64,000 nucleotides of DNA from the NCBI GenBank assembly GCA_965248355.1, contig OZ252098.1:288001-352000 (forward strand), in the 5' to 3' direction. The notes under the pieces were generated by a model. The model was not told the origin of the DNA and made no database searches. It was given only the letters and a program-made list of their open reading frames with translations. How positions within the stretch are numbered: position 1 is the first letter of the stretch; every line of letters starts with the position of its first letter. Below are positions 5,617 to 21,588 of the stretch, piece after piece. The position numbers were made by a program, and so were the translations under genes. The stretch is from Candidatus Latescibacterota bacterium (GTDB lineage Bacteria > Latescibacterota > UBA2968 > UBA8231).

Positions 5617-8600
5617 TTACCGGTAGTAGCCCTTCACCCATCTCGTGTTGTAGTCGAGCACGTAGCGCACGTGCTCCGGCGTTGCGGGGTAGGTCTCGCC
5701 CGGGCCGTAGGGGTAGCGGGACATGCCGTGGAAGGGAAGGGGCTCGACGGTCAGGGAGTGGGCGGAGTGGAAGTCCATGTCCTTTCCGAATCCGTCGGCG
5801 TAGAACAGGAAGGTCCGCTCCCAGCCCTCGGGCACCGGCGGGAAGCCGCCGGCCTCGACCTCCAGTGTCAGCTCGTCGCCGTGGCGCAGGATGGCGAAGC
5901 GGTCGTCCACGGCGGCCACCAGCTCGGTCACCTCCCCGTGACGGGTGAAGGCGCCGGCGTGGGTACCCCAGGGGGCCTCGGTGCGCAGGCGGTCGTAGTG
6001 GTAGCGGAAGGCGAACGTGCCCCCGATCGACTCGTGGACGGGGTAGCCGCGCCAGTGCAGGTCGGCCCGGAACCGGCGCCGGTGGACGCTGCGCGGCGCC
6101 TGGGGCTCCGACCGCCCGAGGAGGAAGCGGTCCCAGTAGACGCAGGCGCGGGTGGTGATGCGCAGGCGCGCCCTCTCGGCATCGGCCGGGAAGAGGCCCT
6201 CCAGGTCGACGAGCATGGTCTTCGGCAGGCCGGCGGGGGTGCCCATGTCGGCGGTCACCAGGCGCCAGCCCTCGCCGTGGTCGGCTTCGAGCCGCGGCGG
6301 CGACAGGTCCAGCCCGCGTTGGGCCGCGGCCCAGTTGCTGCTGGAGTGGGCATAGTCGACCCATCCGTGGGCCAGCAGGACCGGGTGCGGCCATCCCCTC
6401 AGGTCGCCGAGGTCCAGGACCAGGGTGGACTCCCCGGCGTAGCCGTGGATGTCGCTGCGCGGGAATCCCTCGTACCAGATGTCGTCGACGTGGGCCAGCT
6501 CCGCGCTCACGTCGCGGCCCTCCCCGTCGCGGGCGTTGCGCAGAGCGCGGGTCTCCGCCAGGGCATGGGTGCGGAAGGGGGGGTAGGGAGGCGCCGACAG
6601 CAGGCGTTCCTCCGGCTCGATTCGCAGGTGGGCGGGATGGTCCACGGCGACCAGCTCCGCGGCGTCGAGGTAGACGATCTCCTCCAGCTGGTTGGCCACC
6701 TGGAGCACGTAGCGTCCGTCCCGCGCTTCCAGGTCGCGCAGGGGGAGATACTCGTCCGTGTCGGGCGTGTAGTATTGGCCCGGGCCGGTCAGGTAGCCGA
6801 TGATGGCACCGCCGAGGAAATCGGAGACGAAGCGGAAGCCGCCGCCGTCCCAGGCATAGAGGATGGGGCAGGAGGTGCCCTTGCGATCGAGCTCCGTCAG
6901 AGCCAGCCTCCGGCCGGCGGCGCTGGCCAGCTCGGTCTGGCGCACGCCGCTGGGCCAGAGGACGCTCACGAACTCCACCGAGTCGGCTCCGGCCAGGCCG
7001 AAGTGCAGGACCGGCGGGTCGGAGGGCCCGCCGCGCAGCTCCCGCTTCTGCTGTCCCCCCGCGGTGGCCACCACCACCTTGGCGCCGAAGCCGTCCGGAT
7101 TGCTGTTGCGCCCCGACAGGTCGACGGCGAGCCAGCCTCCGGCCTCGCTGTGGTTGCGCCACACCCGCCGGCCGGCGAGCACGTCGAGGCGGCCGTCGCC
7201 GTCGACGTCGAGAATGGCCCACGGGCCCGGTCCGAGAGCCGGCCCGGCCGGGCGGAAGTCGGGGCCGTCGTGGACGGCCGCCCGGGCGCCCTCCGGTCCC
7301 GTCCACAAGAGGTCGAGGTCGCCGTCGTTGTCGAAGTCGGCGGGCAGGGCCTGCCGGGCGCCGGACGGGGCGGCAACCGGGCTCGCCTCGAAGGTCCGGC
7401 CCCCGTTGGCGTGCAGGCGGGCGCCGCCGGCGGTCACGGTCAGGACGTCCATGCGTCCGTCCGGCACGAGGTCGGCCACGACGAGGCCGGTGACGCCGCC
7501 GGCCTCCAGGCCCCGCCGGCCGGCCACGTCGGTGAAGGTGCCGTCGCGGTTGTTGCTGTGAAGGGCCAGGGTCCGCCCGCCGGCGACGACGTCGACGTCG
7601 CGGTCGTCGTCGAGGTCGGACAGCACCACCGCCTCGATGCCGGGTCCCCCGAGGCGGGAGACTTCGGTGGCATCGGCGAAGGCTCCGGTGCCGTCGTTGG
7701 CCCACAGGGCCAGCCCGGGGCCGGCGGTGAGCAGATCGACGTCGCCGTCGTGATCGACGTCGCCGAACAGGGTGGTCCCCGGCGCCGGCGCCAGGGCGCC
7801 GCCGAGACGGAACCGCCCGCCTTCCTCCTGCAGCGCCAGGCGCAGGCCGTCGCCGGACCAGGCCGCGTCGGGGTCGCCGTCGTCGTCCACGTCGGCGAAG
7901 ACCAGGCCCCGAGGCGGCGGGGCGTCTTCGAAAGCCCAGGCCGCCCCCATCCGCAGTCCCGCGCCGGTGTTGGTCAGCAGCAGCGGCCCCCGGCCCGTTC
8001 CGGCCACCACATCCGCATCCCCGTCCCCGTCGGCGTCGACGGGGGTGAGGAAGAGCAACGGTCCCTCGGCGCCGGCCAGCTCCAGCTCCTCCTCCTCTTC
8101 GAAGCGCAGGTCCTGGCCGCGGTCGGCGCCGCCGCCGAACCCGCCTTCGGCGAGGGCCTCGGCGTACTGGCCCTGCCCCTGGTACGAGGAGGAGACGCCC
8201 TCCACGCCGGCCTGGCTCAACTGGTCGAACCGCTCCAGGGTCCGCCGCCAGGCCTCCAGGTCGCCCTGCTGCCTCAGCTCCTGGGCCAGGGCGTAGTGGG
8301 CGGACAGGTGGGTGGGGTTCAGGGCGATGGCGCGCTGGTAGGCGGCCACCGCGGAGTCGGCGTGCCCCACCTTGGCATGGGTCCGGCCGAGATAGTACCA
8401 GACGAGGGGATCCTCGCCGTCCCGGGCCGCGACCCTTCGGAAGCGCTCCAGGGCGGCGTCGTAGTCGCGTCCCTGGGCGTGATCGATCAGACCCAGGGTG
8501 TAGAGCGCGTGCAGGTGGCCGCCGTCGCGCTCGAGGGCTGCGTCCAGGGCCACGCGGGCGCTGTCGTACTTGCCCAGGCTGTAGAGGGCGATGCCGAGGT

Positions 8601-8817
8601 TGGCGCGGGCCGTGGGGTAGTGCGGGGCCAGCCTCGCCGCCTCTTCGAAGTGCTCGCGGCCCCGGACGTAGTTGTGCTGGTCCATGTAGACGACGCCCTG
8701 GTTGTTGTGCCAGCGCGCCTCCCCAGGCAATCCGCCTCCCGCCTCCGGGCCGCAGCCGAGCCCCGCGGTGAGGGCGATCCAGGCCGCGCCGGCGGCCTTG
8801 ACGCTCTTTTTTGCCAC
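5617..8817 (-). CDS. TPR + FG-GAP repeat + ASPIC/UnbV (CRTAC1-like) lipoprotein
   Basis: Lipobox-like GLGC, N-terminal TPRs, repeated DxDxDGDxD motifs, LHFGL...VLWPSG (ASPIC/UnbV), then SCPILYAWDG domain. Confidence 0.85.
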   Translation of the reverse strand: MAKKSVKAAGAAWIALTAGLGCGPEAGGGLPGEARWHNNQGVVYMDQHNYVRGREHFEEAARLAPHYPTARANLGIALYSLGKYDSARVALDAALERDGGHLHALYTLGLIDHAQGRDYDAALERFRRVAARDGEDPLVWYYLGRTHAKVGHADSAVAAYQRAIALNPTHLSAHYALAQELRQQGDLEAWRRTLERFDQLSQAGVEGVSSSYQGQGQYAEALAEGGFGGGADRGQDLRFEEEEELELAGAEGPLLFLTPVDADGDGDADVVAGTGRGPLLLTNTGAGLRMGAAWAFEDAPPPRGLVFADVDDDGDPDAAWSGDGLRLALQEEGGRFRLGGALAPAPGTTLFGDVDHDGDVDLLTAGPGLALWANDGTGAFADATEVSRLGGPGIEAVVLSDLDDDRDVDVVAGGRTLALHSNNRDGTFTDVAGRRGLEAGGVTGLVVADLVPDGRMDVLTVTAGGARLHANGGRTFEASPVAAPSGARQALPADFDNDGDLDLLWTGPEGARAAVHDGPDFRPAGPALGPGPWAILDVDGDGRLDVLAGRRVWRNHSEAGGWLAVDLSGRNSNPDGFGAKVVVATAGGQQKRELRGGPSDPPVLHFGLAGADSVEFVSVLWPSGVRQTELASAAGRRLALTELDRKGTSCPILYAWDGGGFRFVSDFLGGAIIGYLTGPGQYYTPDTDEYLPLRDLEARDGRYVLQVANQLEEIVYLDAAELVAVDHPAHLRIEPEERLLSAPPYPPFRTHALAETRALRNARDGEGRDVSAELAHVDDIWYEGFPRSDIHGYAGESTLVLDLGDLRGWPHPVLLAHGWVDYAHSSSNWAAAQRGLDLSPPRLEADHGEGWRLVTADMGTPAGLPKTMLVDLEGLFPADAERARLRITTRACVYWDRFLLGRSEPQAPRSVHRRRFRADLHWRGYPVHESIGGTFAFRYHYDRLRTEAPWGTHAGAFTRHGEVTELVAAVDDRFAILRHGDELTLEVEAGGFPPVPEGWERTFLFYADGFGKDMDFHSAHSLTVEPLPFHGMSRYPYGPGETYPATPEHVRYVLDYNTRWVKGYYR

Positions 8818-8840: not shown

Positions 8841-8916
8841 GCGGGAGTAGCTCAGTTGGTAGAGCCCCACGTTGCCAACGTGGTTGTCGCGAGTTCGAGT
8901 CTCGTCTCCCGCTCCA
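8841..8916 (+). tRNA. tRNA-Gly (GCC)
   Basis: GCGGGAG/CTCCCGC acceptor stem, D arm, anticodon arm CCACG-TTGCCAA-CGTGG, GTTCGAG T loop, encoded CCA; 76 nt. Confidence 0.97.
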
Positions 8917-8921
8917 CCGAA

Positions 8922-11345
8922 TCAGCGGCCCGCCGCCGGAGGCAGCCCAGCCTTCCCGCGGCGGGCCGTTTTTCTTTGCCCCTCGCGCAGCTGCAGCAGC
9001 GCCGGCAGCAGGGTGACGGCGGAGAGGAAGCAGGACCCCAGACCCAGTAGCGTGACCGTGCCGACCCAGTAGAGGGCCGGGTGATGGGCGGGCACGAGGC
9101 CGGCGAAGCCGACCATGGTCGTCAGCGTCGTGGCCAGCAGGACCGTCCCCGTGGTGCGCAGCACCAGGCGCATCGATCCGGGGCCGGCCTCGCGGTAGCG
9201 GTGGAACATGTGCACGGCGTTGTCGATCCCCATGCCGATGATCGTGGGGAAGGCGACCATGTTGTAGATGTTGACCTTGAAGTCGAAGATGTACATCAAC
9301 CCCGTGACCCAGGCCAGCGCCGTGAGCAGGGGCGTGAGGACGAGGAGGGTGCCGGTGAGACTGCGCAGATCGACCAGCAGCACGAGGGTCACGGCGATCA
9401 GGGTCACGATCACGGCCTTGACGGCGTCGTCGAGCATCAGTTCCAGCATCTCGGCGAAGATGATGTGGGCGCTCGAGGGGTGGAAGGTGCCGCCGTCCGG
9501 CGTGCGGATCTCCTTGATCTGGCGGGCGAAGGCGATGGCGTTGCGCCCGTCGCGCAGGGGCACGGCGGCGTTGATCTGCACGAAGCTGAGGATCTCGCCC
9601 TCCTTGCCGGAGAAGCTCTTGGTCATCTCCCCGGGCAGGTCCTCCAGCCGCAGCCGCGAGACGTCCAGGTAGAGGCGCAGCGAGTCGGCGCGGGCCCGGT
9701 CGTCGTCCTCGAGCAGGCCCTCGTTCTCCTCCAGGGTCCGCCGCAGGCCGGCGAGGATGGCCAGCTTCTCCTCCTGGTCCGCCGGCAGCAGGGAGTAGAC
9801 GCTGCGCACCGAGCGGATGGTGGAGCTGTCCCCGAGGGCCGAGCGCCGCCGCTCCACCTCGGCCACCACGGCCATGGCCTGCGCCTCGTTCTCGGTGAGG
9901 ACGATGGCAGGGGCCCGGGTCTCCTTCAGCTCGTCGGGGAGGCTCGCCTTCGGCCCCCCGGAGGAGGTGTCCGGCCGCAGCTTCTTGAAGTCGTACTCGA
10001 ACCGCAGGTCGGAGAGGTGCAGGACCGAGTAGGCCGTGGCCACGACGGCCAGGAGGAGGGTGAGGTGAGGGACGGGGTACCGGCCGCGGCGCAGCAGGTG
10101 GTCCGGCACCTCCCTCTGGCCCAGGCGGATCAGCCCCAGTCTCTCGGCCAGGACGATGAAGGCCGGGCTGATGACGACCATGGCCACCAGGGAGAACAGG
10201 ATCCCGGCGCCGACGATGAAGCCGAACTCGCTGAACCCCTTGAAGTCGGAGAACAGGAGGGAGAAGAACGCCACGGCCGTGGTCACCGCCGTCGTGGTCA
10301 GGGCCCTTCCCGTCTGGCAGACCGTCTCCACGAGGGCGGCTTCGGTCTCCAGCCCCCGGCGGCGGGCCTCGCGGAAGCGCGCGAAGATGTGGATCCCGAA
10401 ATCGATCCCCAGGCCGAAGAGGATGGCGAAGAGGCAGACCGTGATCTGGTTGAGATTGCCGATCACCAGCCAGGTGAGGGCGAAGGTCCACGACAGGCCC
10501 ATGAGCAGGGGGACGACGATGAACAGCGGCGACAGGACCTGGCGGAAGTAGAGGGAGATGAGCACGAGGACGCCGAGGAAGGCGTAGAGCGCCGTCGAGC
10601 GCAGGTCCTGCAGGATCACCTCGTACTGGTTGAAGGCGTTGTTGAAGCTCCCCGAGAAGGCGACCTCCAGACCGGGGTGGAAGCTCCGGGGGTCGATCTC
10701 CTCGATGGTCGACCGGATGCCCGCCAGCAGGCGCCGGCTGAAGGTCATGTCGGTGATGACCCCGGAGGGGTAGACCCGCAGGATGACGCCGTTGCCCTCC
10801 TTGGTCAGGTAGTAGTCGCGGTCGAGGCCGGTGCGCCGGTCGGCGTAGCGGGCCTCCAGATCGTCCAGGTCGAGGGGGTCCTCCTCCTCCTCGAGGCCGA
10901 CGTAGAGGGGCGATCGATGCAGCTTCTCCAGCTCGACCTTGTCCTCCACCCGGCGCTGCAGCTCCCGCAGGTCGGCCAGGTCCATGTAGAGGAGCCGGTT
11001 GCGGCCGAGGAACTCGGTCTGGGCCATGCGCCCGCGCACGACGGAGCTCAGCATGGGACTGCGCTCGAGGGAGTCGGCCAGGACGTGCACGAAATCAACG
11101 CAGGCCGCCAGATCCTCGCCGGTGACGATGACCATGAGCGGCGCGATGCCGCCGACGCGCTCCTTGATGCGGTTCAGCTCGCGGACGCTCACGTAGTCGT
11201 CCGGCAGGAGGTCGGCCGAGTCCGCCTTGATCTTCAGGCGGACGGCCAGGGAAGCGGCGAGGGCGGAGACCACCAGGGAGACGAGGATGATCCCCAGGTG
11301 GTGGTGGAAGACGTAGTGGACTATGCGCTCGTAGCTGATGCGCAT
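8922..11345 (-). CDS. MMPL/RND family lipid transporter (HpnN-like)
   Basis: Two RND repeats with GLGIDFGIH and GMGIDNAVH TM4/TM10 motifs and two large periplasmic loops. Confidence 0.9.
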   Translation of the reverse strand: MRISYERIVHYVFHHHLGIILVSLVVSALAASLAVRLKIKADSADLLPDDYVSVRELNRIKERVGGIAPLMVIVTGEDLAACVDFVHVLADSLERSPMLSSVVRGRMAQTEFLGRNRLLYMDLADLRELQRRVEDKVELEKLHRSPLYVGLEEEEDPLDLDDLEARYADRRTGLDRDYYLTKEGNGVILRVYPSGVITDMTFSRRLLAGIRSTIEEIDPRSFHPGLEVAFSGSFNNAFNQYEVILQDLRSTALYAFLGVLVLISLYFRQVLSPLFIVVPLLMGLSWTFALTWLVIGNLNQITVCLFAILFGLGIDFGIHIFARFREARRRGLETEAALVETVCQTGRALTTTAVTTAVAFFSLLFSDFKGFSEFGFIVGAGILFSLVAMVVISPAFIVLAERLGLIRLGQREVPDHLLRRGRYPVPHLTLLLAVVATAYSVLHLSDLRFEYDFKKLRPDTSSGGPKASLPDELKETRAPAIVLTENEAQAMAVVAEVERRRSALGDSSTIRSVRSVYSLLPADQEEKLAILAGLRRTLEENEGLLEDDDRARADSLRLYLDVSRLRLEDLPGEMTKSFSGKEGEILSFVQINAAVPLRDGRNAIAFARQIKEIRTPDGGTFHPSSAHIIFAEMLELMLDDAVKAVIVTLIAVTLVLLVDLRSLTGTLLVLTPLLTALAWVTGLMYIFDFKVNIYNMVAFPTIIGMGIDNAVHMFHRYREAGPGSMRLVLRTTGTVLLATTLTTMVGFAGLVPAHHPALYWVGTVTLLGLGSCFLSAVTLLPALLQLREGQRKTARRGKAGLPPAAGR
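8925..8977 (+). terminator. Intrinsic terminator after tRNA-Gly
   Basis: CGGCCCGCCGC...GCGGCGGGCCG stem followed by TTTTTCTTT; overlaps the last codons of the convergent MMPL gene. Confidence 0.75.
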
Positions 11346-11366
11346 GCGGCGCCCGGCGGCCCCGGC

Positions 11367-11984
11367 TCAGCCCTGCCCTTCGAGCCGGTCCAGCTTCCGG
11401 CGCAGGGCGTCGAGGAGCTCGGGGTACGAGCGGCGGCCGATGTAGCGGGTGTAGCTGCGGCGGTTGGCCTCCGCCGTGCCGGCGCCGTCCACGGCGAGAT
11501 CGTAGATGCGCCAGGCGCCCTCGCCGCCGGCCGGCCCCGGCCGGTGGAGGAAGTAGGCGATCTGCTTGGTCTCCTGTTTCAGCGGCACCTCGGCGCGCAC
11601 CACCGCCCGGCCCTCCTCGTCGAGCTCCTCGGAGGTGTAGGTGATCCGGCCCTCCCGGTGGTAGCGCACGAAGAGGTCGAAGTTCTGCCTCTCGATGATG
11701 CCGCGGAAGATCCCCACGAACTCGTCGCGCTCCTCGCCGGTGCGTTCCTGCCAGTGGTCTCCCAGGGACAGGCGCGCCAGCTCCCGGAAGTCGAAGGCCT
11801 CGTTGATCAGGGCCTGCACCCGGCTCCGGTTCTCGCTGGACAGGCTGTCCGGGTGGGCGAGCACGATCGCGCGCACGCGCTCGTCGTGGTCCTGGAGGAA
11901 GTCGGTGGCCGTGCCGGCGGGCGCCGACTCGGCGAGCAGGCCGAGGGGGAGCTGGCCGATGAGCAGGCAGAGGGCGGTCTTCAT
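11367..11984 (-). CDS. MlaC/Ttg2D (HpnM-like) periplasmic lipid-binding protein
   Basis: Signal peptide; FDFRELARLSLGDHW...ERDEFVGIF...WRIYDLAVDG....NRRSY pattern. Confidence 0.85.
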   Translation of the reverse strand: MKTALCLLIGQLPLGLLAESAPAGTATDFLQDHDERVRAIVLAHPDSLSSENRSRVQALINEAFDFRELARLSLGDHWQERTGEERDEFVGIFRGIIERQNFDLFVRYHREGRITYTSEELDEEGRAVVRAEVPLKQETKQIAYFLHRPGPAGGEGAWRIYDLAVDGAGTAEANRRSYTRYIGRRSYPELLDALRRKLDRLEGQG

Positions 11985-13255
11985 GGCGTGATCCCCTGGG
12001 AGGTGGAGCCGGTGAGGATGCCGGGCTCCCGGAAGCCGCCGCAGTGGTCGACGACGCGGCCCTGCTCCCAGGCCTCGCGCGTCCAGGCGCGCAGGTCGGC
12101 GTAGCAGGCCTCGGCGCGGGTCCCGGTGTTGTTGGCGTCGGTCAGCAGGCCGAGCCCCTGGGTCCGGTTCTTCGGGCGGCCGCCGTAGGTGCGCTCGTAG
12201 TCGCGCTCGAGGTCGACGGCCTCGAAGGTCCACCGGCCCAGGTTCTCCTCACCGCTCTCGGCGACGATGAACCAGGGGCGGAAGATGCGGTTTCGCCGCC
12301 CCACGGTACCGAGGGGCAGGGTGGTGCTCCACACGTACTTGACGTGCCGGGGGGCGCCCAGCCAGGTCTGCGAGAAGAACACGTACAGGCCCGCGGCGCT
12401 GTCGTTCGCGGGCCCCAAGCGCTCGTCGCCGCCGGTTGGCAGCACGTCGGCCCGCCAGCACCACGTCAGGATCGGAAACTCCCGCGGGTTCCACTGGGCG
12501 AGGCGTCCGATGAGGACCGAGGCCTCCGAGACCCGGGCCTCGAGGAAGGATCCCCGGTCGTGCCGGCGCACCTGGTAGGGCTTGGCCGCTTCCTCGTCGC
12601 GGTCCCGCCAGCCCCAGCCCGGAGGCAGGTCGCCCGGCTCCGAGAAGGAGAAGTCCTCGAGGACGATGTACTCGCGGCCGGCGAGCCGGGCCTCGAGGAC
12701 GGCGGGGGAGTCGCGGCGGTCCAGGACGTCCTCGTACCGCCCCCGGTAGATCCGGCTCAGGCGGCGGTCCTGGAGGCGCAGGTCCCGCAGGCGCCAGCCG
12801 TCCTCGGTGCGCCGCAGGTGGCAGAGGATCGGCCCTCCCCCCGGGAGAGCCACCTCGGCGCGGCCGCTGCCGCCGTCGAAGTGGGAGGCCAGGACCTCCA
12901 GGCCCGGTGGCCCGCCGGACAGCCGGGGCGCCAGATCGGCGGCCAGCCGCTGCCGCAACGCCGTCCGGAGGCGCGCGCGGTGCGCCTCGACATGGGCCCG
13001 GAACCCGGCGCGGGTCATGTGGTCCTCGACCTCGGCCAGGCTGTCCTCCACGTAGTCGCCGAAGCAGAGCTCGGCGAAGGCGGGCAGGTCGACGGCGCGG
13101 TCGACGAAGGCGGCCGCCGTCACCTCGGGGGAGCCCCGGCGCCCCGCGTTGAGGCGGTCCACCTCGGCCGCCAGCCACGCCTCGGGCCCGGCCGCCTCGG
13201 CGGCGGCGGCACCGGCCAGCCAGACCAGGCCCGCGGCGATTCCCCGGGCCTTCAA
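11981..13255 (-). CDS. Exported MlaC-like + DUF3047 fusion protein
   Basis: TTG start overlaps the TolC stop (TTGA). N-half VDLPAFAELCFGDY...GWRLRDLRL...YRGRY is MlaC-like; C-half PILTWCWR..LP.GGDE...DSAAGLYVFF..KYVWS...LLTDANNT is DUF3047-like. Confidence 0.7.
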   Translation of the reverse strand: MKARGIAAGLVWLAGAAAAEAAGPEAWLAAEVDRLNAGRRGSPEVTAAAFVDRAVDLPAFAELCFGDYVEDSLAEVEDHMTRAGFRAHVEAHRARLRTALRQRLAADLAPRLSGGPPGLEVLASHFDGGSGRAEVALPGGGPILCHLRRTEDGWRLRDLRLQDRRLSRIYRGRYEDVLDRRDSPAVLEARLAGREYIVLEDFSFSEPGDLPPGWGWRDRDEEAAKPYQVRRHDRGSFLEARVSEASVLIGRLAQWNPREFPILTWCWRADVLPTGGDERLGPANDSAAGLYVFFSQTWLGAPRHVKYVWSTTLPLGTVGRRNRIFRPWFIVAESGEENLGRWTFEAVDLERDYERTYGGRPKNRTQGLGLLTDANNTGTRAEACYADLRAWTREAWEQGRVVDHCGGFREPGILTGSTSQGITP

Positions 13256-14616
13256 TCCGGGTTCTCCGGGCGGAGAGAGGTGCCCGCCACGCGCTCGAGC
13301 GCGGCCAGCGTGAGGTTGGTCTCGTACACGGCTTCGAGGTAGGCCTGCTCGGAGAGGGCAAAGGTCTCGAAGGCGCTCACCAGATCCTTGATCCGGGCCG
13401 GATCGAGATCGTACTCGTCGCGGGCGATGCGCAGCCATTCCCGCGTCAGATTGCGGCCGCGCAGGGCCGAGCTCAGCCCCCGGCGGGCGCCTTCGTACTC
13501 CTTCCGGGCCTGATCGATCTCCAGGCGGATGCCCTGGGCGCCGCTGCGCTCCCGGGCCTCGAGCTGGAGGCGCCGCGCCCGGGCCCGGTCCACCTCGGCG
13601 CCGATCAGTCCGATCTCGAAGGACTGGCGCAGCCCCAGCACGATGGCTCCGCTGAACAGGTTGAACTCGTCCTTGACGAAGGGGTTGTGCTGATCCGTCC
13701 GTCCCGGCGCCGCGGCGTGGCGCAGGCCCCCGGCGAGGAAGACCTGGGGATACCAGGCGCTGCGCGCGGCCTGCTCCTGGGCGCGGCGGGCGGCCACGCC
13801 GGCGCGCAGACGGCGCCAGTCCGGCCGGTGCCGCAGCGCCCGGCGCACCAGTTCCTCGAGGGGGGGGACCTCGGCGGCCTTCGGTTCGAGCCGGGCGTCG
13901 GCCAGCTCGAAGGGCGCGTTCTCCGGGAGTCCGGCCTTCCAGGCCAGGGCGGACCGGGCGAGCTGGAGCTGGTCCTCGAGCTGGCCTTCGCGGTCCCGGA
14001 GCTCCAGCAGGGCCAGCTGCAGGCGGTAGGGGACGCCCAGGGGGATGTCGGGGTCATCGGGGTCCACCTCCCCTTCCCGCTCCTCGAGCTCCTGCCGCAG
14101 ACGCCGGGCGAGGGACGACAGGTCCCGGGCCAGGAGCATCCCGTAGTAGAGCTCCCTGATCTCGAATACGAGCCCCTGGCGCGTCTCCTCGAGGGCGGCC
14201 CTCTCGACCTCGACAGCCTGCTCGGCCGCGGTCCGCAGGCTGGAGAGCCGGCCGAAGGTGTACAGGGGCTGGGTGAACTCGAGCTCGGTGCGCACGAAGG
14301 GGCCCAGGGGGCGCACGCCGGAGGTGTCTTCCGGAGGATGGAAGATGTCCCCCCGGGCGTCCGGCACCATGCCGCCGAAGCTCTCGAGCCGGAGGCGTGG
14401 CAGCAGGCGGGCGGCGCGGGCCTGGCGCAGCTGGGCGCGGGCGTCCTGCAGGCGCCAGCGGGTCGTGGCCACCTCGGGGCCGTTCTCCCGGGCCATGGCC
14501 ACCAGCTGGTCGAGGCCATAGACGGGGATGCCTTCCGACCCGGCGGTCCGGGGGCGGGCCGGCTGCGGAAGCAGGAAGAGGCTGCCCACGACGGCCAGGC
14601 ACAGGGTCCGCGTCAT
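13252..14616 (-). CDS. TolC family outer membrane efflux protein
   Basis: Signal peptide; QPLYTFG, ARSAWYPQV and terminal LAALERVAG OEP-repeat motifs. Confidence 0.88.
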   Translation of the reverse strand: MTRTLCLAVVGSLFLLPQPARPRTAGSEGIPVYGLDQLVAMARENGPEVATTRWRLQDARAQLRQARAARLLPRLRLESFGGMVPDARGDIFHPPEDTSGVRPLGPFVRTELEFTQPLYTFGRLSSLRTAAEQAVEVERAALEETRQGLVFEIRELYYGMLLARDLSSLARRLRQELEEREGEVDPDDPDIPLGVPYRLQLALLELRDREGQLEDQLQLARSALAWKAGLPENAPFELADARLEPKAAEVPPLEELVRRALRHRPDWRRLRAGVAARRAQEQAARSAWYPQVFLAGGLRHAAAPGRTDQHNPFVKDEFNLFSGAIVLGLRQSFEIGLIGAEVDRARARRLQLEARERSGAQGIRLEIDQARKEYEGARRGLSSALRGRNLTREWLRIARDEYDLDPARIKDLVSAFETFALSEQAYLEAVYETNLTLAALERVAGTSLRPENPD

Positions 14617-14618
14617 GC

Positions 14619-15680
14619 TCAACGGAAGGCGCTCTGGTGAAGGGGCCGCTCCTCGGCCGGCCCGGCCGAGGCCGGTGCCGGTTCGCTCCCGAGGCCCGCG
14701 GTGCGGCCCAGGGAGCGGCTCAGGTGGGTGAGGAACATCCAGCCCACCGAGATCCACAGGAGCTTGCGCATGCGCTTGACGATGCCGAGGGACAGACCCA
14801 TGGCCGGGTCGAGTCCAAGGGTGAGGAACAGGAAGACCTGACCTCCTTCGAGGACGCCGATGTTGGAGGGCATGAAGAAGAACAGGCCGTTGATGGCCAC
14901 CGTCAGGGAGGCGATGAGAAAGGCGATCTCGAAGTCGATGCCGGCGCCGAGGGCGCGGAGGATGACGAAGGTCTCGCAGGCGCCCAGGAGCCACCCGCAC
15001 GCGTGGAACAGCAGGACGAGGCCGAAGCGCCCCTTGTGCCGCCGGAAGAAGCGGGAGATGTGGCGATCGATATCCGCCGCCCGGGCCCGGAGGCGCTCGA
15101 TCACCTCGAGACCGAGTCCACAGCGGCGGGCGAAGCCCAGGAGCGAGGAGAAGATGCGCCGCTGCCTGCGGTAGGCCACCCAGAGCAGGAGAACGGCGAG
15201 GGCGAGGAGCAGGGCCATGCCGCCGCGGACCGTGGCGGGCAGGGCCAGGGGCAGCTCCCAGTAGAGGATGACCAGGCCCAGCCCGACCGCGGTGAAGGAC
15301 AGTCCGGTGAAGACCTGGGCCGCCTTGTTGACGACCACCGAGGCCAACCCCCGCGAGATCGGCGACTGGTGGCGCAGCAGGAAGGCCTTGAGGGGCTCGC
15401 CGCCGAGGTTGGCCAGGGGCGTCAGCTGGTTGACGGCCTCGCCCGCGAGCTTGCACATGAACAGGGACGACAGGCGCGGGCGAAAGCCGTCGGCGGGAAA
15501 GGCGAAGCTCCAGGCCACCGAGTTGGTCACGTGCCACGCGAAGGCCAGCAGGACCACCAGCAGGAAGGTCCACCGCATCACCGCCAGGTTGTGGAGGATG
15601 TCCGCCAGACCGAGGGTGCCGATGAGGTAGCCGAGGAGCAGCAGCCCCAGGCCCGGCAGCAGAACGCGGAAGACCTTCAC
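14619..15680 (-). CDS. Lysylphosphatidylglycerol-synthase TM domain / UPF0104 flippase-like protein
   Basis: AGEAVNQLTPLANLGGEPLKAFLL and PSNIGVLEGG motifs, multiple TM helices; GTG start overlaps the upstream stop. Confidence 0.85.
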   Translation of the reverse strand: MKVFRVLLPGLGLLLLGYLIGTLGLADILHNLAVMRWTFLLVVLLAFAWHVTNSVAWSFAFPADGFRPRLSSLFMCKLAGEAVNQLTPLANLGGEPLKAFLLRHQSPISRGLASVVVNKAAQVFTGLSFTAVGLGLVILYWELPLALPATVRGGMALLLALAVLLLWVAYRRQRRIFSSLLGFARRCGLGLEVIERLRARAADIDRHISRFFRRHKGRFGLVLLFHACGWLLGACETFVILRALGAGIDFEIAFLIASLTVAINGLFFFMPSNIGVLEGGQVFLFLTLGLDPAMGLSLGIVKRMRKLLWISVGWMFLTHLSRSLGRTAGLGSEPAPASAGPAEERPLHQSAFR

Positions 15681-17071
15681 CGGCTGGCGATCCCTCCGGG
15701 CCCCGGGGCCGTCCCAGGGTCGGAAGCGGGCGGGGCCCCCTCGGCCCCGCGCTGGTGGGCGGCCAGCATCTTGCCCTGGGACAACAGGACGCCGAGGGCG
15801 ACCACGTGCAGGCCGCCCACGGTGAACAGGTAGATCAGGTCGAAGGCCCCGAGGAGGGCGAAGAGGAAGTGCACGAAGGAGAAGGAGTCGCGCTTGGCCA
15901 GGAAGGCGTAGCGCTCGAGGGCGCGGTAGAGGGCGCCCTTCTCCGCGTGGGGCACGTGGCGGGCGAAGCCGACGATGTAGTTCTGCAGCGACCCCGACCC
16001 GGTGCGCACCGCGTAGTGGTACATGATCCCCAGGGTGAGGAGCATGGCGGCCACCGCGGACAGGCCGGCGTAGAGGTAGAGGGGCTGTCCGGGGTGCAGC
16101 CCGTGGGCCGCCTTCAGGAAGGCGGCGTAGGCGATCACGTAGGCCAGATTGTCGGTCACCGTGTCGAACCAGGCGCCGAACTTCGACTCGCACAGCTTGA
16201 CCCGGGCGATCTCCCCGTCGCAGCGGTCGAGGACGGCCGCCATCTGCCAGAGGAACCCCGCCAGGGCCAGGCGCCAGTACGGTTCCGGGTGCGAGATCAG
16301 CCAGGCGGCGCCCAGGCCGGTGGTCAGCACGAACAGGATCGTCACCAGGTGCGGCGACAGGCCGGTCTCGATGAGCACCATGCTGATGGGGATCGAGAGA
16401 CGGGAGTTGATGTGGCGGGAGACGGGGCCGCTCGTCTTCTTGGTGACCTGTCCGAAGAGCATGGCCTTGGCCTGTCGGGCGCTGCGGCGGTCCACGACGC
16501 GGCGCCACAGGGACGGGTCGCCCTCGGCGGTCCGCACCCGGCGGCCGGCGGCGCGGGCGCAGAGCGACTCGAGGACGGGGCCGCCGCCGGCGACGACCTC
16601 GTGCGGGCGAATGGCCCCGTCGCACAACAGCGCCCCCGTGCCGACCGGCGGCCGGGCGCCGCCGGGCCGCAGAACCCCGGTGAGGGCGAGAAAGGAGAGC
16701 CGCCCCTGGTCTGGCGGCGGCGAGACCTGGGCCACCAGCCCGTCGCCGGGAACCCCGCCATCGACCAGGGCCGTGAGCGAGGTGTGGTGATGGACGTGGT
16801 CCCCGAGGAGGACCAGCACCCGTTCGCCGGCGCCGAAGGTGGTGCGCGGCGAATCCCCCCACGCCACGATCTCGATATCGAGATCGTGGCGGCGGACGAG
16901 GCGCCCGGGAGAGGGGGAGAGCCCCCCGGGGACGGCCACCACGAGGCGGCCCACGCCGGCGCGGGCCATGGTGAGGATCCCGCGGTCGAGGGTCGTGAGG
17001 CCGCCGAAACGGCGCCCGGCGATCCAGGCGCCCCGGGGGCTGTCCTCGAACACCAGCAGGCCGCCGGTCAT
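15677..17071 (-). CDS. CDP-alcohol phosphotransferase with degenerate N-terminal NTP-transferase-like domain (IPCT/DIPPS-like)
   Basis: DRCDGEIAR...GAWFDTVTD signature and GPVSRHINSRLSIPIS segment; the N-domain lacks the LAAG.G.R motif. Confidence 0.85.
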   Translation of the reverse strand: MTGGLLVFEDSPRGAWIAGRRFGGLTTLDRGILTMARAGVGRLVVAVPGGLSPSPGRLVRRHDLDIEIVAWGDSPRTTFGAGERVLVLLGDHVHHHTSLTALVDGGVPGDGLVAQVSPPPDQGRLSFLALTGVLRPGGARPPVGTGALLCDGAIRPHEVVAGGGPVLESLCARAAGRRVRTAEGDPSLWRRVVDRRSARQAKAMLFGQVTKKTSGPVSRHINSRLSIPISMVLIETGLSPHLVTILFVLTTGLGAAWLISHPEPYWRLALAGFLWQMAAVLDRCDGEIARVKLCESKFGAWFDTVTDNLAYVIAYAAFLKAAHGLHPGQPLYLYAGLSAVAAMLLTLGIMYHYAVRTGSGSLQNYIVGFARHVPHAEKGALYRALERYAFLAKRDSFSFVHFLFALLGAFDLIYLFTVGGLHVVALGVLLSQGKMLAAHQRGAEGAPPASDPGTAPGPGGIASR

Positions 17072-17832
17072 GCGGGCTCTCGCAGCGATGGGGTCGCCAG
17101 GGCGCCGGCCTCGTACTCCTCGACGCGAAGGCGCACATCGAGCAGATCCTCGGCCGTGTCGATGTCCGAACAGGGCAGGTCGCCGATGTCGAGGCAGCGG
17201 ACGGGGCAACCGGCCTCAGCCATCCGCCGGACGCCGTCCAGATAGAAGCCGTGCAGGGCCTCCTCTTCCTCCACCGCCTCCTCGAGGACGCGGCGCAGCA
17301 GACGACTGCCGTCGCCGGTGACCCGCATGATGCCGACCGACTCGGCCTGCGCCCGGGCGGGATGGAGACCCTTGCCGATCCTGGCGAGGCGCCCGCCCTG
17401 GATCTCCACCTTCATGTCGTCCTCGTCGTAGGCGGCCTTGCGGTGCACCAGCAGGGTGCAGGGCCCGGGCTCCCCGTCGAGCAGAGGTCGCAGGACCTGG
17501 GGGTGGAAGACGTTGTCGCCGTTGAGCACGAGCAGGTCGTCGCCGATCTCGGAGCGCGCCGACCACAGGCTGATGAGGTTGTCGGAGATGGCGAAGAAGG
17601 GATTGTAGACGACGCGGACGGCCACGGGGGCCGAGGCTTCCACCTGGCGCCGCACCGCCTCGGCGCCGAAACCGGCGACGATGGTCACGCCTTCCACGCC
17701 CGCTGCGGCGAGGCGCTCCAACTGGTGCTCGAGAATCGTGCGCGGACCCACCGGCAACAGGCACTTGGGGCGCTCCGATGTGTACGGCAGGAGGCGGCGG
17801 CCACGGCCGGCGGCCAGGATCAGTGCGTTCAA
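17068..17832 (-). CDS. Phosphocholine/sugar-phosphate cytidylyltransferase family NTP-transferase
   Basis: ALILAAGRGRRL...PKCLL, NGD, EDDMKV, ESVG, DIDT..DL; probable TTG start at 17832. Confidence 0.88.
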   Translation of the reverse strand: MNALILAAGRGRRLLPYTSERPKCLLPVGPRTILEHQLERLAAAGVEGVTIVAGFGAEAVRRQVEASAPVAVRVVYNPFFAISDNLISLWSARSEIGDDLLVLNGDNVFHPQVLRPLLDGEPGPCTLLVHRKAAYDEDDMKVEIQGGRLARIGKGLHPARAQAESVGIMRVTGDGSRLLRRVLEEAVEEEEALHGFYLDGVRRMAEAGCPVRCLDIGDLPCSDIDTAEDLLDVRLRVEEYEAGALATPSLREPA

Positions 17833-18079
17833 CGGTATCGGCGTGCGGGGCGAAGGGAGACGTCGGGGCGCCTGCCCACGGACGAAGGCAGAGCGCCTCC
17901 GGTGAGTGCGCGCCCTCGGAGGCGGCGGGAACCCCGGTTCGGGGGCCGGATCAGCTTGGTGAAAAGTAGCCATAAACCTCGGTCCGCGGCAACGATATGG
18001 GGTCATTCCCTCCGCCGTATATTGACGTTTCGGCACCGGGCCGTATCCCGGACCCCTTCTCCGGCACGGAGGTTCCCGA

Positions 18080-18802
18080 CTGCGCGCCATCATCCTCGCC
18101 GCCGGGGCCGGTACCCGGCTCCGCCCGCTCACGGAGAGCCGGCCGAAGTGCCTGGTCCCGGTGGCGGGACGGGCTCTGATCGACCGCCAGCTGGACGGGC
18201 TCACCGGCATCGGGGTGCGGGACGTGGTCGTGGTCACAGGATTCGAGGCCGGCCAGGTACGCTCCCATCTCGGCGGCCGGGCTCGCTGCGTCGTCAACGA
18301 CGACTGGCCGACGACGAACAGCATCGAATCGCTGCACCGGGCACGCCGCTACCTGGAGGGGGACACCTTCCTGCTCAACTGCGATATCCTGTTTGAACGG
18401 GCCGCCGTGGAGCGCCTCGGGACAGCTGCGGGCAGCAGCATCGCCGTCGACTCCCGGGCGGTCCGGGAAGCCGGGGAGATGAACGTGCGGATCGGCCCGT
18501 CGGGCCGGGTTGCGGAGATCGGCAAGCACCTGGACCCGGCCCGGTCGCAGGCGGTGAGCGCGCAGCTGGTCCGCTTCGACGCCGCCGGGTCGGAGTTGGT
18601 TCGGCGGGAGGTCGAACGCCTGGTGCGCGGGGGAGGAGGCGGGGCCTTTCCCCCCTCGGCGTACGGACCGCTGATCCGGTCCGGAGGGCTGCGCCCCGTG
18701 GAGACCGGGGATCTCCCCTGGTTCGAGATCGACTCCCTGGAGGACTATCGGCGAGCCTCCCGGCAGCTGGCCCGGCGGCGGCCCGGTGGCGGCCTGCCAT
18801 GA
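18080..18802 (+). CDS. Second phosphocholine cytidylyltransferase-family NTP-transferase (CTG start)
   Basis: CTG-RAIILAAGAGTRLRPLTESRPKCL...WFEIDSLEDY; GGAGG 7 nt upstream of CTG; in-frame TGA at 18023 excludes an earlier start. Confidence 0.85.
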   Translation: MRAIILAAGAGTRLRPLTESRPKCLVPVAGRALIDRQLDGLTGIGVRDVVVVTGFEAGQVRSHLGGRARCVVNDDWPTTNSIESLHRARRYLEGDTFLLNCDILFERAAVERLGTAAGSSIAVDSRAVREAGEMNVRIGPSGRVAEIGKHLDPARSQAVSAQLVRFDAAGSELVRREVERLVRGGGGGAFPPSAYGPLIRSGGLRPVETGDLPWFEIDSLEDYRRASRQLARRRPGGGLP

Positions 18803-21588
18803 GGGATCGAATCGAGATCCGCGGGGCCCGCGAGCACAACCTGCAGGCCGTGGACCTGGACCTTCCCCACGGCCGGCTCATCGTCCTCACCGGCGTCTCC
18901 GGCTCGGGCAAGTCGAGCCTGGCCTTCGACACCATCTACGCCGAGGCCCGGCGGCGTTTCCTGCTGACGGCCGAAGGGGGAGCCGCCGCCTTCGCCCAGC
19001 GGCTGCAGCCGCCGCGGGTGCAGCGCATCGACGGGCTGCGGCCGGCCCTGGCCATCGCCCAGGCGCGCCATCGTCCGTCGTCGCGCTCGACGGCGGCCAC
19101 GATCACCGGGCTGGCGGACTACCTGCGGCTGTTGTGGGCCCGGGTCGGCCGGCCCCGCTGCCTGGAATGCGGCGAGCCGGTGGCCGCCCACGCCTTCGAG
19201 GAGGTCCTGGAGCGGGCCTCGGGCCGGCCCGAGGGCAGCCGGCTGGTGGTGACGGCTCCCCTGCCGCCGCCGGCCACGGCGGACGGGGCCCGGGAGCTGA
19301 TCGCCGAGGTCGAGCGCAGCGGCTACCGGCGGCTCCGCTGCGGCCCCGAGACCCTGGTGCTGGAGGATGTGGAGCCCTCCCGGATCGTCGGCCGTCCCCT
19401 GGAGGTGGTCGTCGACCGGGTCAAGGTCAAGACGGACACCCGGCGGCGGTTGCGGGGCTCCCTGCAGGCGGCGGTCCAGCTCGGCCGCGGGCGCGTCGGC
19501 CTCGTCGATCCGGCCACCGGCGCCGAGGAGCGCTACAGCGTGCGGCCCGCCTGCGCCGGTTGCGGGGCCGCCTTCCCGGACATCTCCGCCGCGCTGTTCA
19601 GCTTCAACAGCCCGGCCGGCGCCTGCCCGGACTGCCACGGCACCGGACGCTCCGCGGGCAGCTCCTTCGAGCGGCTGCTGTCGGCGGGCGAGCCTCCGGC
19701 GGCGTCCCTGGCGGTGCTGTGGGAGCGCTTCGGCCATCGCCGTCTCCAGCGGGAGGTGGACGGATTCTGCCGGCGCGCCCGGGTCGACCCGTCGGAGCCC
19801 CTCTCGGAGTGGCCGGAGGAGGTGGTCCGCGCCCTGTGGGAGGGCGAACGGCCCCGGCCCCGCGGCAAGCCCTTCCCCGGGCTGCGGCGCTGGCTCGATG
19901 CGAGAGCCGGGGCGGCGGACGACCGCGAGGAGCGCGCCTGGCTGGAGGAGGTGCAGGAGAGCGGGGCCGGGGAGTCGCCCTGCGGCGGGTGCGGGGGCCG
20001 CCGCTTGTCGGCCGCCGCCCTGGCCGTCCGCATCGACGGGGAGAGCATCGCCGATCTGCTGGGCCGCACCCTCTCCGAAGCCGCCGAATGGCTCCAAGGG
20101 GTCGCCATCGCCCCCGAGCAGCGGGCCCTGGCCGACCACATCCTCGACGTCGTCCGCCAGGGAGTGGCGGTGATGCTCGACCTCGGACTGGGATACCTCA
20201 CCCTGGACCGGCGGGCGCCGACGCTGTCGGCCGGGGAGCTGCAGCGCCTGCAACTTGTGGCCGCCCTCGGCTCGGGTCTGTCCCAGGTCCTCTACGTCCT
20301 CGACGAACCCAGCGCCGGCCTGCACGGGCGGGACACCCGCCGCCTGGGGGCCGCCCTCGAGCGGCTCCGGGACCGGGGCAACTCCGTGCTGGTCGTCGAG
20401 CACGATCTGGACCTGGTCAGGGCCGCCGACCTGCTCGTGGAGCTCGGACCCGGCGCCGGCGACCAGGGCGGACGCCTGCTCTTTCGGGGGCCGCCCCGGG
20501 AAGCCGGGACCGCCGGCACCGCCACCGGCCAGGCCCTGGCCGGGGACGGACCGGCGCGGCGCAATCGCACCCCGGGCGCCGGCGGCTGGCTGGAGCTTCT
20601 GGGCGCCCGCGGTCACAACCTGCAGGGCGTCGACCTGTCCCTCCCCCTCGGCTGCCTGGTGAGCGTCACGGGCGTCTCCGGCTCGGGCAAGAGCAGTCTC
20701 GTCCATCACACCCTGCACGCCGCCCTCGCCGCCCGCCTGCAGGGCGCCGGACGCCGGCCCCTGCCCTTCGACGAGTTGCGGGGATCCGAGGCCCTGGAGC
20801 GGGTGGTCGCCGTGGATCAGTCTCCCATCGGCCGCACGGCGCGCTCGAACGCGGCCACCTACACCGGGCTCATGGCCGTCCTGCGACAGCTGTTCGCCGA
20901 GTTGCCCGAGTCCCGGCTGCGCGGCTACCACGCCGGCCACTTCAGCTTCAACAGCGCCGGCGCCTGCAGCCGCTGCGGCGGCACCGGCCGCGAGCCGGAG
21001 GCGGCCGTCGACCTGGAGGATCTGCCCCTGCCCTGCGGGCGCTGCGCGGGCACCCGCTACCGGCGGGAGGTCCTGGAGATCCGCTTCCGCGGCCTGTCGA
21101 TCGCGGAAGCGCTGGAGCTGAGCGTGGCCGAGGCGGGGCTCCGGTTCGCCAACGTGCCCGAGGCCGCCCGGCGCCTGGGGCTGCTCACCGATCTCGGACT
21201 GGGGTACCTGCGTCTCGGTCAGCCGGCGAGTCACCTCAGCGGCGGCGAGGCCCAGCGGGTGAAGCTGTCGGCCGAGCTCGGCCGGCCGGCGGTGGAGCGC
21301 ACCCTCTATCTCCTGGACGAGCCCACCTCCGGGCTGCACCGCCGCGACGCGGCCTTCCTCGTGGAGCTGCTTCAGCGTCTGGTCGACCGCGGCCACACGG
21401 TGCTCGTGGTCGAGCACGACCCGTACGTGATCGCCGCCTCCGACCACGTCGTCGACCTCGGTCCCGAGGCCGGAGGCGATGGGGGGCGGGTGGTGGTGAC
21501 GGGCACGCCGGACGAGGTCGCCGCCTGCGAGGCCTCGCACACCGGCCGGGTTCTCCGGGCGGCCTTTCCCGCGGTCCCGGGGGTTTGA
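18799..21588 (+). CDS. uvrA: UvrA-family ABC ATPase (divergent)
   Basis: GAREHNL, two GVSGSGKSSL Walker A motifs, FSFNS..GAC Zn motifs, LSGGEAQRVKL, LDEP. Confidence 0.85.
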   Translation: MRDRIEIRGAREHNLQAVDLDLPHGRLIVLTGVSGSGKSSLAFDTIYAEARRRFLLTAEGGAAAFAQRLQPPRVQRIDGLRPALAIAQARHRPSSRSTAATITGLADYLRLLWARVGRPRCLECGEPVAAHAFEEVLERASGRPEGSRLVVTAPLPPPATADGARELIAEVERSGYRRLRCGPETLVLEDVEPSRIVGRPLEVVVDRVKVKTDTRRRLRGSLQAAVQLGRGRVGLVDPATGAEERYSVRPACAGCGAAFPDISAALFSFNSPAGACPDCHGTGRSAGSSFERLLSAGEPPAASLAVLWERFGHRRLQREVDGFCRRARVDPSEPLSEWPEEVVRALWEGERPRPRGKPFPGLRRWLDARAGAADDREERAWLEEVQESGAGESPCGGCGGRRLSAAALAVRIDGESIADLLGRTLSEAAEWLQGVAIAPEQRALADHILDVVRQGVAVMLDLGLGYLTLDRRAPTLSAGELQRLQLVAALGSGLSQVLYVLDEPSAGLHGRDTRRLGAALERLRDRGNSVLVVEHDLDLVRAADLLVELGPGAGDQGGRLLFRGPPREAGTAGTATGQALAGDGPARRNRTPGAGGWLELLGARGHNLQGVDLSLPLGCLVSVTGVSGSGKSSLVHHTLHAALAARLQGAGRRPLPFDELRGSEALERVVAVDQSPIGRTARSNAATYTGLMAVLRQLFAELPESRLRGYHAGHFSFNSAGACSRCGGTGREPEAAVDLEDLPLPCGRCAGTRYRREVLEIRFRGLSIAEALELSVAEAGLRFANVPEAARRLGLLTDLGLGYLRLGQPASHLSGGEAQRVKLSAELGRPAVERTLYLLDEPTSGLHRRDAAFLVELLQRLVDRGHTVLVVEHDPYVIAASDHVVDLGPEAGGDGGRVVVTGTPDEVAACEASHTGRVLRAAFPAVPGV

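Follow-up and report, generated by a model that had tools for sequence, protein, structure and literature searches.

The HpnN-HpnM(-HpnS/HpnT) system of hopanoid trafficking, for which a shuttle route has been predicted, combines an RND/MMPL transporter with a MlaC-like shuttle and an HpnL-like UPF0104 gene beside genes that make the cargo (PMC12324291). In the BstABC sterol transport of Methylococcus capsulatus, an MmpL-family protein is accompanied by periplasmic and outer-membrane partners and is also encoded beside biosynthetic genes (PMC11713862). For head-group chemistry, Archaeoglobus fulgidus has IPCT/DIPPS and AF2299 (4mnd, 2xme, 4o6m), which join a cytidylyltransferase to a CDP-alcohol phosphotransferase (CDP-AP). 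A putative alternative inositol-lipid cluster of Bacteroidetes, unconfirmed, has a similar enzyme pair with a UPF0104-type neighbour (PMC9246714). In the ceramide diphosphoglycerate (CPG2) pathway of Caulobacter, the nucleotidyltransferase CpgD makes CDP-glycerate as the donor, and the CDP-AP CpgA adds it to a lipid head group (PMC12275187, PMC9393093). Here we describe an operon that resembles all of these in part. It lies in a 64,000-nucleotide stretch of DNA, the window (contig OZ252098.1, positions 288,001 to 352,000), of Candidatus Latescibacterota bacterium, the genome of which (G000) is a single 5.5 Mb contig, 95.7% complete. We consider it probable that this cluster makes a phosphodiester-decorated glycerolipid and exports it, in a proton-driven manner and without an ABC transporter, from an MMPL protein to MlaC, then to a MlaC-DUF3047 fusion and to a TolC-like protein.

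The operon consists of seven genes in the same orientation on the minus strand (8922-17832), and an eighth gene diverges from it on the plus strand (18080-18802). Pfam names them MMPL, MlaC, DUF3047, OEP (TolC), LPG_synthase_TM, CDP-OH_P_transf and, twice, NTP_transf_3. Four of the six junctions are 4-bp overlaps, spelling ATGA, GTGA, TTGA and ATGA, and the remaining gaps are 2 and 21 nt. Overlaps of this kind occur at 502 of the 2938 co-oriented junctions of the genome (17%, by our own gene calls), and the binomial p for four in six is ~0.01. A first-pass annotation of this DNA had described the seven co-oriented genes and the divergent second NTP-transferase; its coordinates, overlaps and gaps were all reproduced, and Pfam agrees with its family names, with one exception, the MlaC assignment of the N-terminal region in the DUF3047 fusion. 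Among named NCBIfam models, the best for these genes are HpnN, HpnM, HpnL and IPCT/DIPPS, and every score is below its cut-off.

The MMPL/RND inner-membrane transporter (8922-11345, minus strand; 807 aa; PF03176, E 9e-43) belongs to an HpnN/BstA-like subfamily. HpnN is both its nearest solved structure (5khn, E 5e-71) and its best NCBIfam match (TIGR03480, 303.6 bits against a cut-off of 751.85), and the BstA model NF045600 gives 187.2 bits against a cut-off of 1400. Residues D315, H319, D708 and H712 are invariant in 48 of 48 orthologues, and D315 and D708 are presumably the proton-relay residues. The adjoining gene encodes a MlaC/HpnM-like periplasmic protein (11367-11984, minus strand; 205 aa; PF05494, E 3e-24), which reaches 58.5 bits with the HpnM model TIGR03481 (cut-off 160.1) and has 38 positions that are >90% hydrophobic across 48 orthologues. 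The operon places an RND/MMPL fold with invariant membrane aspartates next to a MlaC-fold shuttle. Structure prediction weakly supports a complex between the two proteins, with a score of 0.38 compared to 0.00 for the best control, at least 94% of the contacts shared between runs and a partner pLDDT of at least 77. It should be mentioned that, of 157 solved complexes, 116 attain the mark used for a complex, as do 2 of 215 mismatched pairs, and that at scores of 0.60 or lower just 18 of the 157 attain it, along with both mismatches.

The gene upstream of MlaC encodes a fusion of a MlaC fold with DUF3047 (11981-13255, minus strand; TTG start). An AlphaFold model built from a 133-sequence alignment (pLDDT 90.3, pTM 0.88) has two domains, the MlaC fold at about residues 19-195 and a DUF3047 beta-sandwich at about residues 192-396. 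The first domain aligns with MlaC/Ttg2D phospholipid-binding proteins at Z 14.7-16.0 and an rmsd of ~2.5 Å (154 residues at Z 16.0), and PF05494 matches many of the orthologues. The MlaC part that the first-pass annotation had assigned to this fusion is thereby upheld, and both MlaC folds of the operon are real. For the second domain, comparison of the predicted structure, by Foldseek too, finds beta-sandwiches, namely that of a glucuronyl C5-epimerase at Z 13.4, those of axonemal proteins at Z 12-13 and, with lower scores, a hyaluronan-binding module (Z 11.4) as well as CBM11, CBM30 and CBM16 (Z ~10). In the model, DUF3047 is thus a sandwich like a carbohydrate-binding module (CBM), here fused to a MlaC fold, which is a new finding. 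Its conserved residues W214, W255, W309, W342, D285 and D373 would be compatible with a glycan-binding surface; fold likeness by itself shows no function. Where the cluster splits, in genus g14, DUF3047 stays with CDP-AP, UPF0104 and GT4 genes. We propose that the fusion serves as a head-group reader.

The TolC-like outer-membrane protein (13252-14616, minus strand; PF02321, E 4e-36, two repeats) forms a distinct subfamily far from the solved TolCs, of which the best relative is found at only E 5e-12. Pfam detects no periplasmic adaptor among the seven genes, and the AcrD/HAE1 models score ~20 bits or lower on MMPL; with neither an adaptor in the operon nor an AcrB-type transporter score, the operon does not match tripartite RND drug efflux of the AcrAB-TolC type. 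Pfam also finds no MlaF/E/D/B or MlaA among the operon genes; an MlaE gene is present elsewhere in the genome (G000 C1:1810986), in a separate MlaE-MCE operon.

Compared to the HpnN-HpnM system, the operon differs in that its genome has no hopene cyclase, its proteins score far under the HpnN and HpnM cut-offs, its outer-membrane partner is TolC-like in place of a lipocalin or a MlaA-like protein, a CBM-like domain is fused to a second MlaC fold, and the linked enzymes are CDP-head-group transferases. The text available for the HpnN-HpnM route does not mention TolC (PMC12324291). In Veillonella a tolC homologue follows the mla genes, and no role is given for it in the excerpt (PMC10665443). 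In BstABC, BstB is PhnD-like and BstC TatT-like, whereas the neighbours of the MMPL gene here are MlaC, DUF3047 and TolC, and there is no sterol pathway. Judged by these gene families, the operon would act like the predicted HpnN-HpnM route and BstABC, but it falls outside both.

Twenty long relatives of the MMPL protein were scanned for fusion partners. Four are fused to PgpA, a lipid phosphatase (P0078, P0087, P0125 and P0144), four to glutaredoxin, two to Wzi (P0076 and P0079), one to TolC (P0023) and one to BacA (L050:10866-14081); the others have no informative partner. The TolC-MMPL and Wzi-MMPL fusions have an inner-membrane domain together with one for the outer membrane in one chain, an odd topology. 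In family f3 (labels f2, f3, f4, f5, f8, f14 and g14 denote families and a genus within the phylum sample described below), a VTT/DedA-domain protein encoded directly upstream of MMPL replaces MlaC (L049:5900-6604, L050:10188-10853). The VTT/DedA family is linked to lipid scrambling. The genome of the window has a second MMPL of the same subfamily, with a stand-alone DUF3047 (L052; G000 C1:4433001-4449000). Its further neighbours are a GT2, three GT4, a PAP2-like gene, a Wzx-like flippase, a methyltransferase and a myo-inositol oxygenase, and the locus resembles the Balneolaceae-titled L142.

The synthesis half starts with NTP-transferase 1 (17068-17832, minus strand; TTG start; 254 aa; PF12804), a cytidylyltransferase-like protein. 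Its profile matches LicC (1jyk, E 7e-21, over the first 121 positions only), followed by 4jd0 (E 6e-15) and 6pd1 (E 1e-14), which we take to be a Thermotoga IPCT and an aminoethylphosphonate cytidylyltransferase, respectively. It forms a clade of its own, separate from IPCT-signature domains, and is proposed as the maker of the CDP-activated head group. The next gene encodes the CDP-AP of the operon, CDP-AP1 (15677-17071, minus strand; PF01066), the nearest solved relatives of which are AF2299 and IPCT/DIPPS. D282, D285, G286, A289, G299, D303 and D307 are invariant in 25 of 25 sequences, and the signature DxxDGxxAR...GxxxDxxxD is present, with Arg or Lys at the R position in 24 of them. The N-terminal cytidylyltransferase-like domain, which is IPCT-like, is degenerate in the window's family, and the window protein has lost the GxGxR motif. 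Fused CDP-AP1 orthologues of other families have an intact IPCT domain; with NF041135 (cut-off 580), five fused relatives score 236-291 bits and the CDP-AP1 of the window 81.5 bits. The fused IPCT domains group in a single clade with a Rhodothermia gene that lies beside ino1, and this clade carries the IPCT sequence signature; the ancestral donor was therefore very likely CDP-inositol. The UPF0104 / LPG_synthase_TM membrane protein (14619-15680, minus strand; HpnL/AglD-like; PF03706, E 9e-29) scores 150 bits with the HpnL model TIGR03476 (cut-off 195.65) and remains with CDP-AP where the cluster splits in genus g14. It is possibly a flippase or a lipid-modifying partner.

The divergent NTP-transferase 2 (18080-18802, plus strand; CTG start; 240 aa; PF12804) has LicC as its top profile match (1jyk, E 4e-31) and, like NTP-transferase 1, comes from a clade other than the IPCT-signature clade. 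In 22 locus rows, some of which repeat a genome, a second CDP-AP (CDP-AP2) is found within 3.5 kb of it in 12 and a Wzx-like gene in 8. This gene neighbourhood points to a new pairing of NTP-transferase 2, with both CDP-AP2 and a Wzx-like flippase as partners. The genome of the window encodes these two elsewhere, together with a GT4 (G000 C1:2909324-2913327). A 934-residue triple fusion of IPCT, CDP-AP1 and CDP-AP2 near a Wzx-like gene (L164:6254-9058, family f3) places the two CDP-APs in one pathway. The operon shares with IPCT/DIPPS the IPCT signature that is kept in fused orthologues; it differs in its degenerate IPCT domain, two other NTP-transferases, apparently changed acceptor arginines and the tie to an export block. 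Unlike Caulobacter CPG2, it has its own MMPL-MlaC-TolC block, searches of this class gave no sphingolipid genes, and lipid A genes are lacking naturally and across the whole class.

To follow the two halves across the phylum we used 151 Latescibacterota genomes, each at least 80% complete; kin are not independent, and the counts are read as patterns and not as statistics. MMPL is present in 126 of the 151, the TolC-like protein in 124 and CDP-AP1 in 124. Six families have all three subfamilies and seven have none of them; in one more family there is a weak MMPL match only. MMPL and CDP-AP1 occur together in 121 genomes and are both missing from 22, with 8 discordant genomes (MMPL only in 5, CDP-AP1 only in 3). 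CDP-AP1 lies within 12 kb of MMPL in 79 of the 121 genomes with both, or 79 of 94 outside genus g14; the chance that a random position lies so near any CDP-AP gene is ~2%. Of the 12 loci from the window's family, 10 have a complete block, one is without CDP-AP and one without the synthesis half. Five f2/f4 loci, with MMPL at ~42% identity, keep TolC, a fused NTP-transferase/CDP-AP, MlaC and MMPL, and two f3 loci keep MMPL alone.

A survey beyond the phylum, by a scan of genome contigs, gave at least 601 stretches, of which 588 were confirmed and 77 loci kept. De-duplication at 60% MMPL identity left 29 loci among the matches listed, 22 of them with at least 5 kb upstream. Among these 22, both halves are found in 8, transport only in 2, CDP-AP only in 3 and neither in 9 (Fisher p 0.03, with kin again not independent). 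The halves are linked in the Gemmatimonadota-titled L118, L125, L128 and L140 and in the Calditrichaceae-titled L109. In the Rhodothermia-titled L141, the genes beside MMPL are TolC, MlaC, two GT4, one Wzx-like and one TagF-like gene, ino1 and an IPCT-type gene; the locus has no CDP-AP. The first-pass annotation had staked its reading on synthesis and transport halves occurring together in other genomes, and in the phylum sample and in the Gemmatimonadota- and Calditrichaceae-titled loci they do. A radical SAM/SPASM protein is encoded beside the cluster in five distant loci (L109, L118, L128, L129 and L138). Also conserved is a trio that encodes an unknown membrane protein, which has no Pfam match, and two oxidoreductases, one of the GMC and one of the Gfo/Idh/MocA type. 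It is located in the genome of the window at C1:97140-100422 (L058:5140-8422) and adjoins MMPL in f2/f4, L112 and L140. The trio may modify or supply the head group.

The cargo can be narrowed by the supply genes present. A hopanoid or sterol cargo was ruled out: PF13243, for squalene-hopene cyclase, has no match in G000, TIGR01507 is above its cut-off in 0 of the 151 phylum genomes, and there is no sterol pathway. The first-pass annotation had noted no hopanoid or sterol genes in the window; squalene-hopene cyclase is missing from the genome and the phylum sample as well. That annotation had further proposed a diacylglycerol or ceramide lipid with an inositol, choline, glycerol or phosphonate head. 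The ceramide acceptor is rejected as unlikely in this phylum: genes like serine palmitoyltransferase (SPT) occur in 3 of 151 genomes and in none of the MMPL-bearing families, and the best match in G000 is a glycine C-acetyltransferase, at 335 bits against a cut-off of 640. The supply genes for two of the heads are missing as well, G000 having no choline kinase and no phosphoenolpyruvate mutase above cut-off; outside uptake of choline or phosphonate is possible. The gene ino1 proved uninformative as a pathway marker, being present in 145 of 151 genomes, clusterless ones included. In G000, ino1 and a separate PIP-synthase-like gene, both outside the operon, could supply phosphatidylinositol as acceptor. 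The ino1 gene of the window's genome (C1:2606124-2608492) is 63% identical to the one inside L141, and in three families ino1 adjoins the same LysR-like regulator (L171, L176 and L177).

Outside the phylum, a ceramide acceptor is possible for three gammaproteobacterial loci and for 4 of 5 outside genomes that hold an SPT-like gene. At those three loci an SPT-like gene adjoins MMPL (522-538 bits against the cut-off of 640 in the two scored). There, MMPL follows the SPT-like gene and a secreted-looking protein of 355-392 aa (L129:6422-12382, L133:5054-12550, L138:1247-9158), which has no Pfam match in the two scanned. CDP-APs are nearby, and the loci are without MlaC or TolC. They are possibly a sphingolipid version with a new carrier.

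The export reading is based on the co-distribution, the kept linkage, the lipid-type fusions, HpnN as the nearest structure, and the MlaC folds with their CBM-like domain; from these we infer the substrates, the order and direction of the steps, and the role of the TolC-like protein. The NTP-transferases would turn small phosphorylated alcohols into activated CDP derivatives, which in relatives that have an intact IPCT domain would be CDP-inositol. CDP-AP1, with CDP-AP2 in most genera of the family, would then transfer the head groups onto a lipid head, the acceptor probably being phosphatidylinositol or a glycosyl-diacylglycerol; GT4 enzymes would add sugar. The product would cross the inner membrane via the Wzx-like flippase and/or the UPF0104 protein, after which MMPL would extract the lipid and pass it to MlaC. 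In the fusion protein the acyl chains would be held by the MlaC fold, and the sugar or inositol head would be read by the CBM-like domain. The TolC-like protein could be the outer-membrane dock, in place of the MlaA/HpnS of the predicted hopanoid route.

Several observations weigh against this proposal. The main objection is that six-helix CDP-APs have been described with soluble acceptors; AF2299 and DIPPS also use soluble donors, and the DIPPS product is soluble (PMC4634129). CpgA is a counter-example: according to genetic evidence, this PgsA-domain protein transfers phosphoglycerate from CDP-glycerate to the head group of a lipid, and its anionic product supports growth without lipid A (PMC9393093, PMC12275187). 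The six-helix architecture would suit an alternative that we regard as improbable, and the least favoured of those considered, in which NTP-transferase and CDP-AP make a soluble compatible solute such as di-myo-inositol phosphate or glycerophosphoinositol, with the transport genes as mere neighbours. It would also fit the close match between Archaeoglobus IPCT/DIPPS and the fused orthologues (E 2e-53 in family f4), and the fact that the halves can be unlinked, which is the case for every one of the 27 genomes in genus g14 as well as for families f3 and f8. The acceptor side of CDP-AP1 appears unlike that of DIPPS, however. The first Arg of RxxR is kept in 24 of 25 sequences and the second in 0 of 25 (Phe in 22), and the Arg of transmembrane segment 6 is found in 0 of 25 CDP-AP1 and 11 of 11 CDP-AP2 sequences, in a segment that aligns to 4mnd at just 7.9 bits. 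With both of these arginines missing, the acceptor of CDP-AP1 is probably not free inositol phosphate. The distribution of CDP-AP tracks MMPL and the TolC-like protein even where the genes are unlinked, and in 6 of the 8 unlinked loci examined CDP-AP lies beside Wzx, GT4, UPF0104 or DUF3047 genes. To be counted on the negative side as well are the lack of any IPCT-signature NTP-transferase in G000, where the IPCT domain is degenerate as well, and the ino1 gene of G000, explicable by the separate PIP-synthase-like gene. The cargo also appears to vary, DUF3047 being absent from most f2 loci and CDP-AP2 being an add-on, because it is found in 42 of 151 genomes. Finally, LptF, LptG and TamB are kept in G000 and MlaE is present; these could carry the product instead.

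The retained Lpt proteins bear on a further alternative, that the MMPL-MlaC-TolC block works inward, in retrieval or recycling that maintains the asymmetry of the outer membrane, or transports phospholipid in bulk, and that the special lipid exits via Lpt. LptF and LptG are kept although the lipid A genes are missing, and the Mla pathway, including MlaC, is retrograde in E. coli (PMC10665443); on the other hand, lipid movement toward the outer membrane has been described for HpnN and BstA, which among characterised transporters are the closest (PMC12324291, PMC11713862), biosynthetic genes are coupled to the block, and MlaE-MCE forms an operon of its own. We give inward or bulk transport little weight. 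Slightly better placed, and still unlikely, is the building of a lipid-anchored surface glycan or phospho-polymer, such as a capsule or lipoglycan, instead of a small membrane lipid. Wzx would then flip repeat units, CDP-polyols would provide substituents or linkers, and MMPL-MlaC-TolC would handle the anchor or carrier lipid. A Wzx-like flippase within 10 kb in 7 and a GT4 in 4 of the 22 de-duplicated loci, among the matches listed, would agree with such a polymer, as would the TagF-like glycerophosphotransferase of L141, where ino1 and an IPCT-type gene also lie beside MMPL, the MMPL-Wzi and MMPL-BacA fusions, and the CBM-like DUF3047. However, no Wzy, Wzc/Wzz or Wza recurs among the annotated common neighbour clusters (many singletons being unannotated), MlaC folds accept whole lipids, and the PgpA fusions suggest a phospholipid.

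Lipid A genes are distributed in the phylum sample by class. LpxC is matched in 0 of 123 genomes of the window's class compared to 28 of 28 genomes of the other classes, and LpxB in 0 of 123 compared to 26 of 28; in G000, WaaA and LpxK have no match either. Relatives have the locus order bamA-skp-lpxD-lpxC/fabZ-lpxA-lpxB. The corresponding locus of G000 (C1:4093643-4096929) reads bamA-skp-fabZ without lpx genes, and its 4-bp overlap and lack of any N indicate that the missing genes are not an assembly gap. On these gene contents, the window's class is likely a naturally lipid-A-less diderm lineage. Other Latescibacteria have been reported with LPS (lipopolysaccharide) genes (PMC4454575), in agreement with the other classes here. 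Among the literature matches listed for Latescibacter and lipid A, none mentions Latescibacter, and the loss of lipid A may already be reported.

It is conceivable, and we put it forward tentatively, that the operon lipid stands in for LPS. The class would have lost lipid A and would have an outer leaflet of an anionic glycophospholipid of the inositol-phosphate type, delivered via MMPL, MlaC, the MlaC-lectin receptor and the TolC-like dock without an adaptor. Two observations limit this idea: the cluster is also found in lpxC-keeping genomes, and Lpt is retained. Six phylum genomes with an MMPL match keep lpxC (f5, f8 and f14), as do 16 of 28 outside genomes with MMPL, which are incomplete metagenome-assembled genomes. 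A cluster exclusive to lipid-A-less genomes is thus rejected, f8 and f14 holding both the cluster and lipid A genes; the cluster therefore predates the loss of lipid A and at most permitted it. A role of the cluster as a TamB replacement was also rejected: G000 has TamB, and in the phylum sample it is present in 131 of 151 genomes.

In the window, the operon is closed by a tRNA-Gly (8841-8916), followed by a TPR/FG-GAP/ASPIC-UnbV gene (5617-8817), the position of which is constant across the family, and by a PBP1A-like gene (3453-5558). On the other side, a uvrA paralogue (18799-21588) has a 4-bp overlap with NTP-transferase 2 and is near the locus in most of the family. There is no sign of an island inserted at the tRNA-Gly, since the GC content is similar to that elsewhere in the window and the family conserves the position. 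A scan of 17700-18200 found no promoter or terminator.

No published description of an MMPL-MlaC-DUF3047-TolC block with CDP-AP was found in a search of mostly open-access texts without supplements. The cluster bears on two open questions, how lipids other than LPS are transported to the outer membrane and how bacteria with two membranes live without lipid A, and it offers a small, expressible candidate set for both. As proposed here, RND/MMPL lipid export would extend past hopanoids, sterols and mycolates to phospholipid or glycolipid cargo, a TolC-family protein would serve as a lipid dock, and DUF3047 would be given its first fold-based role, as a head-group reader. For the organisms themselves, an unknown surface lipid is predicted by the class-wide lack of matches to lpxC and lpxB.

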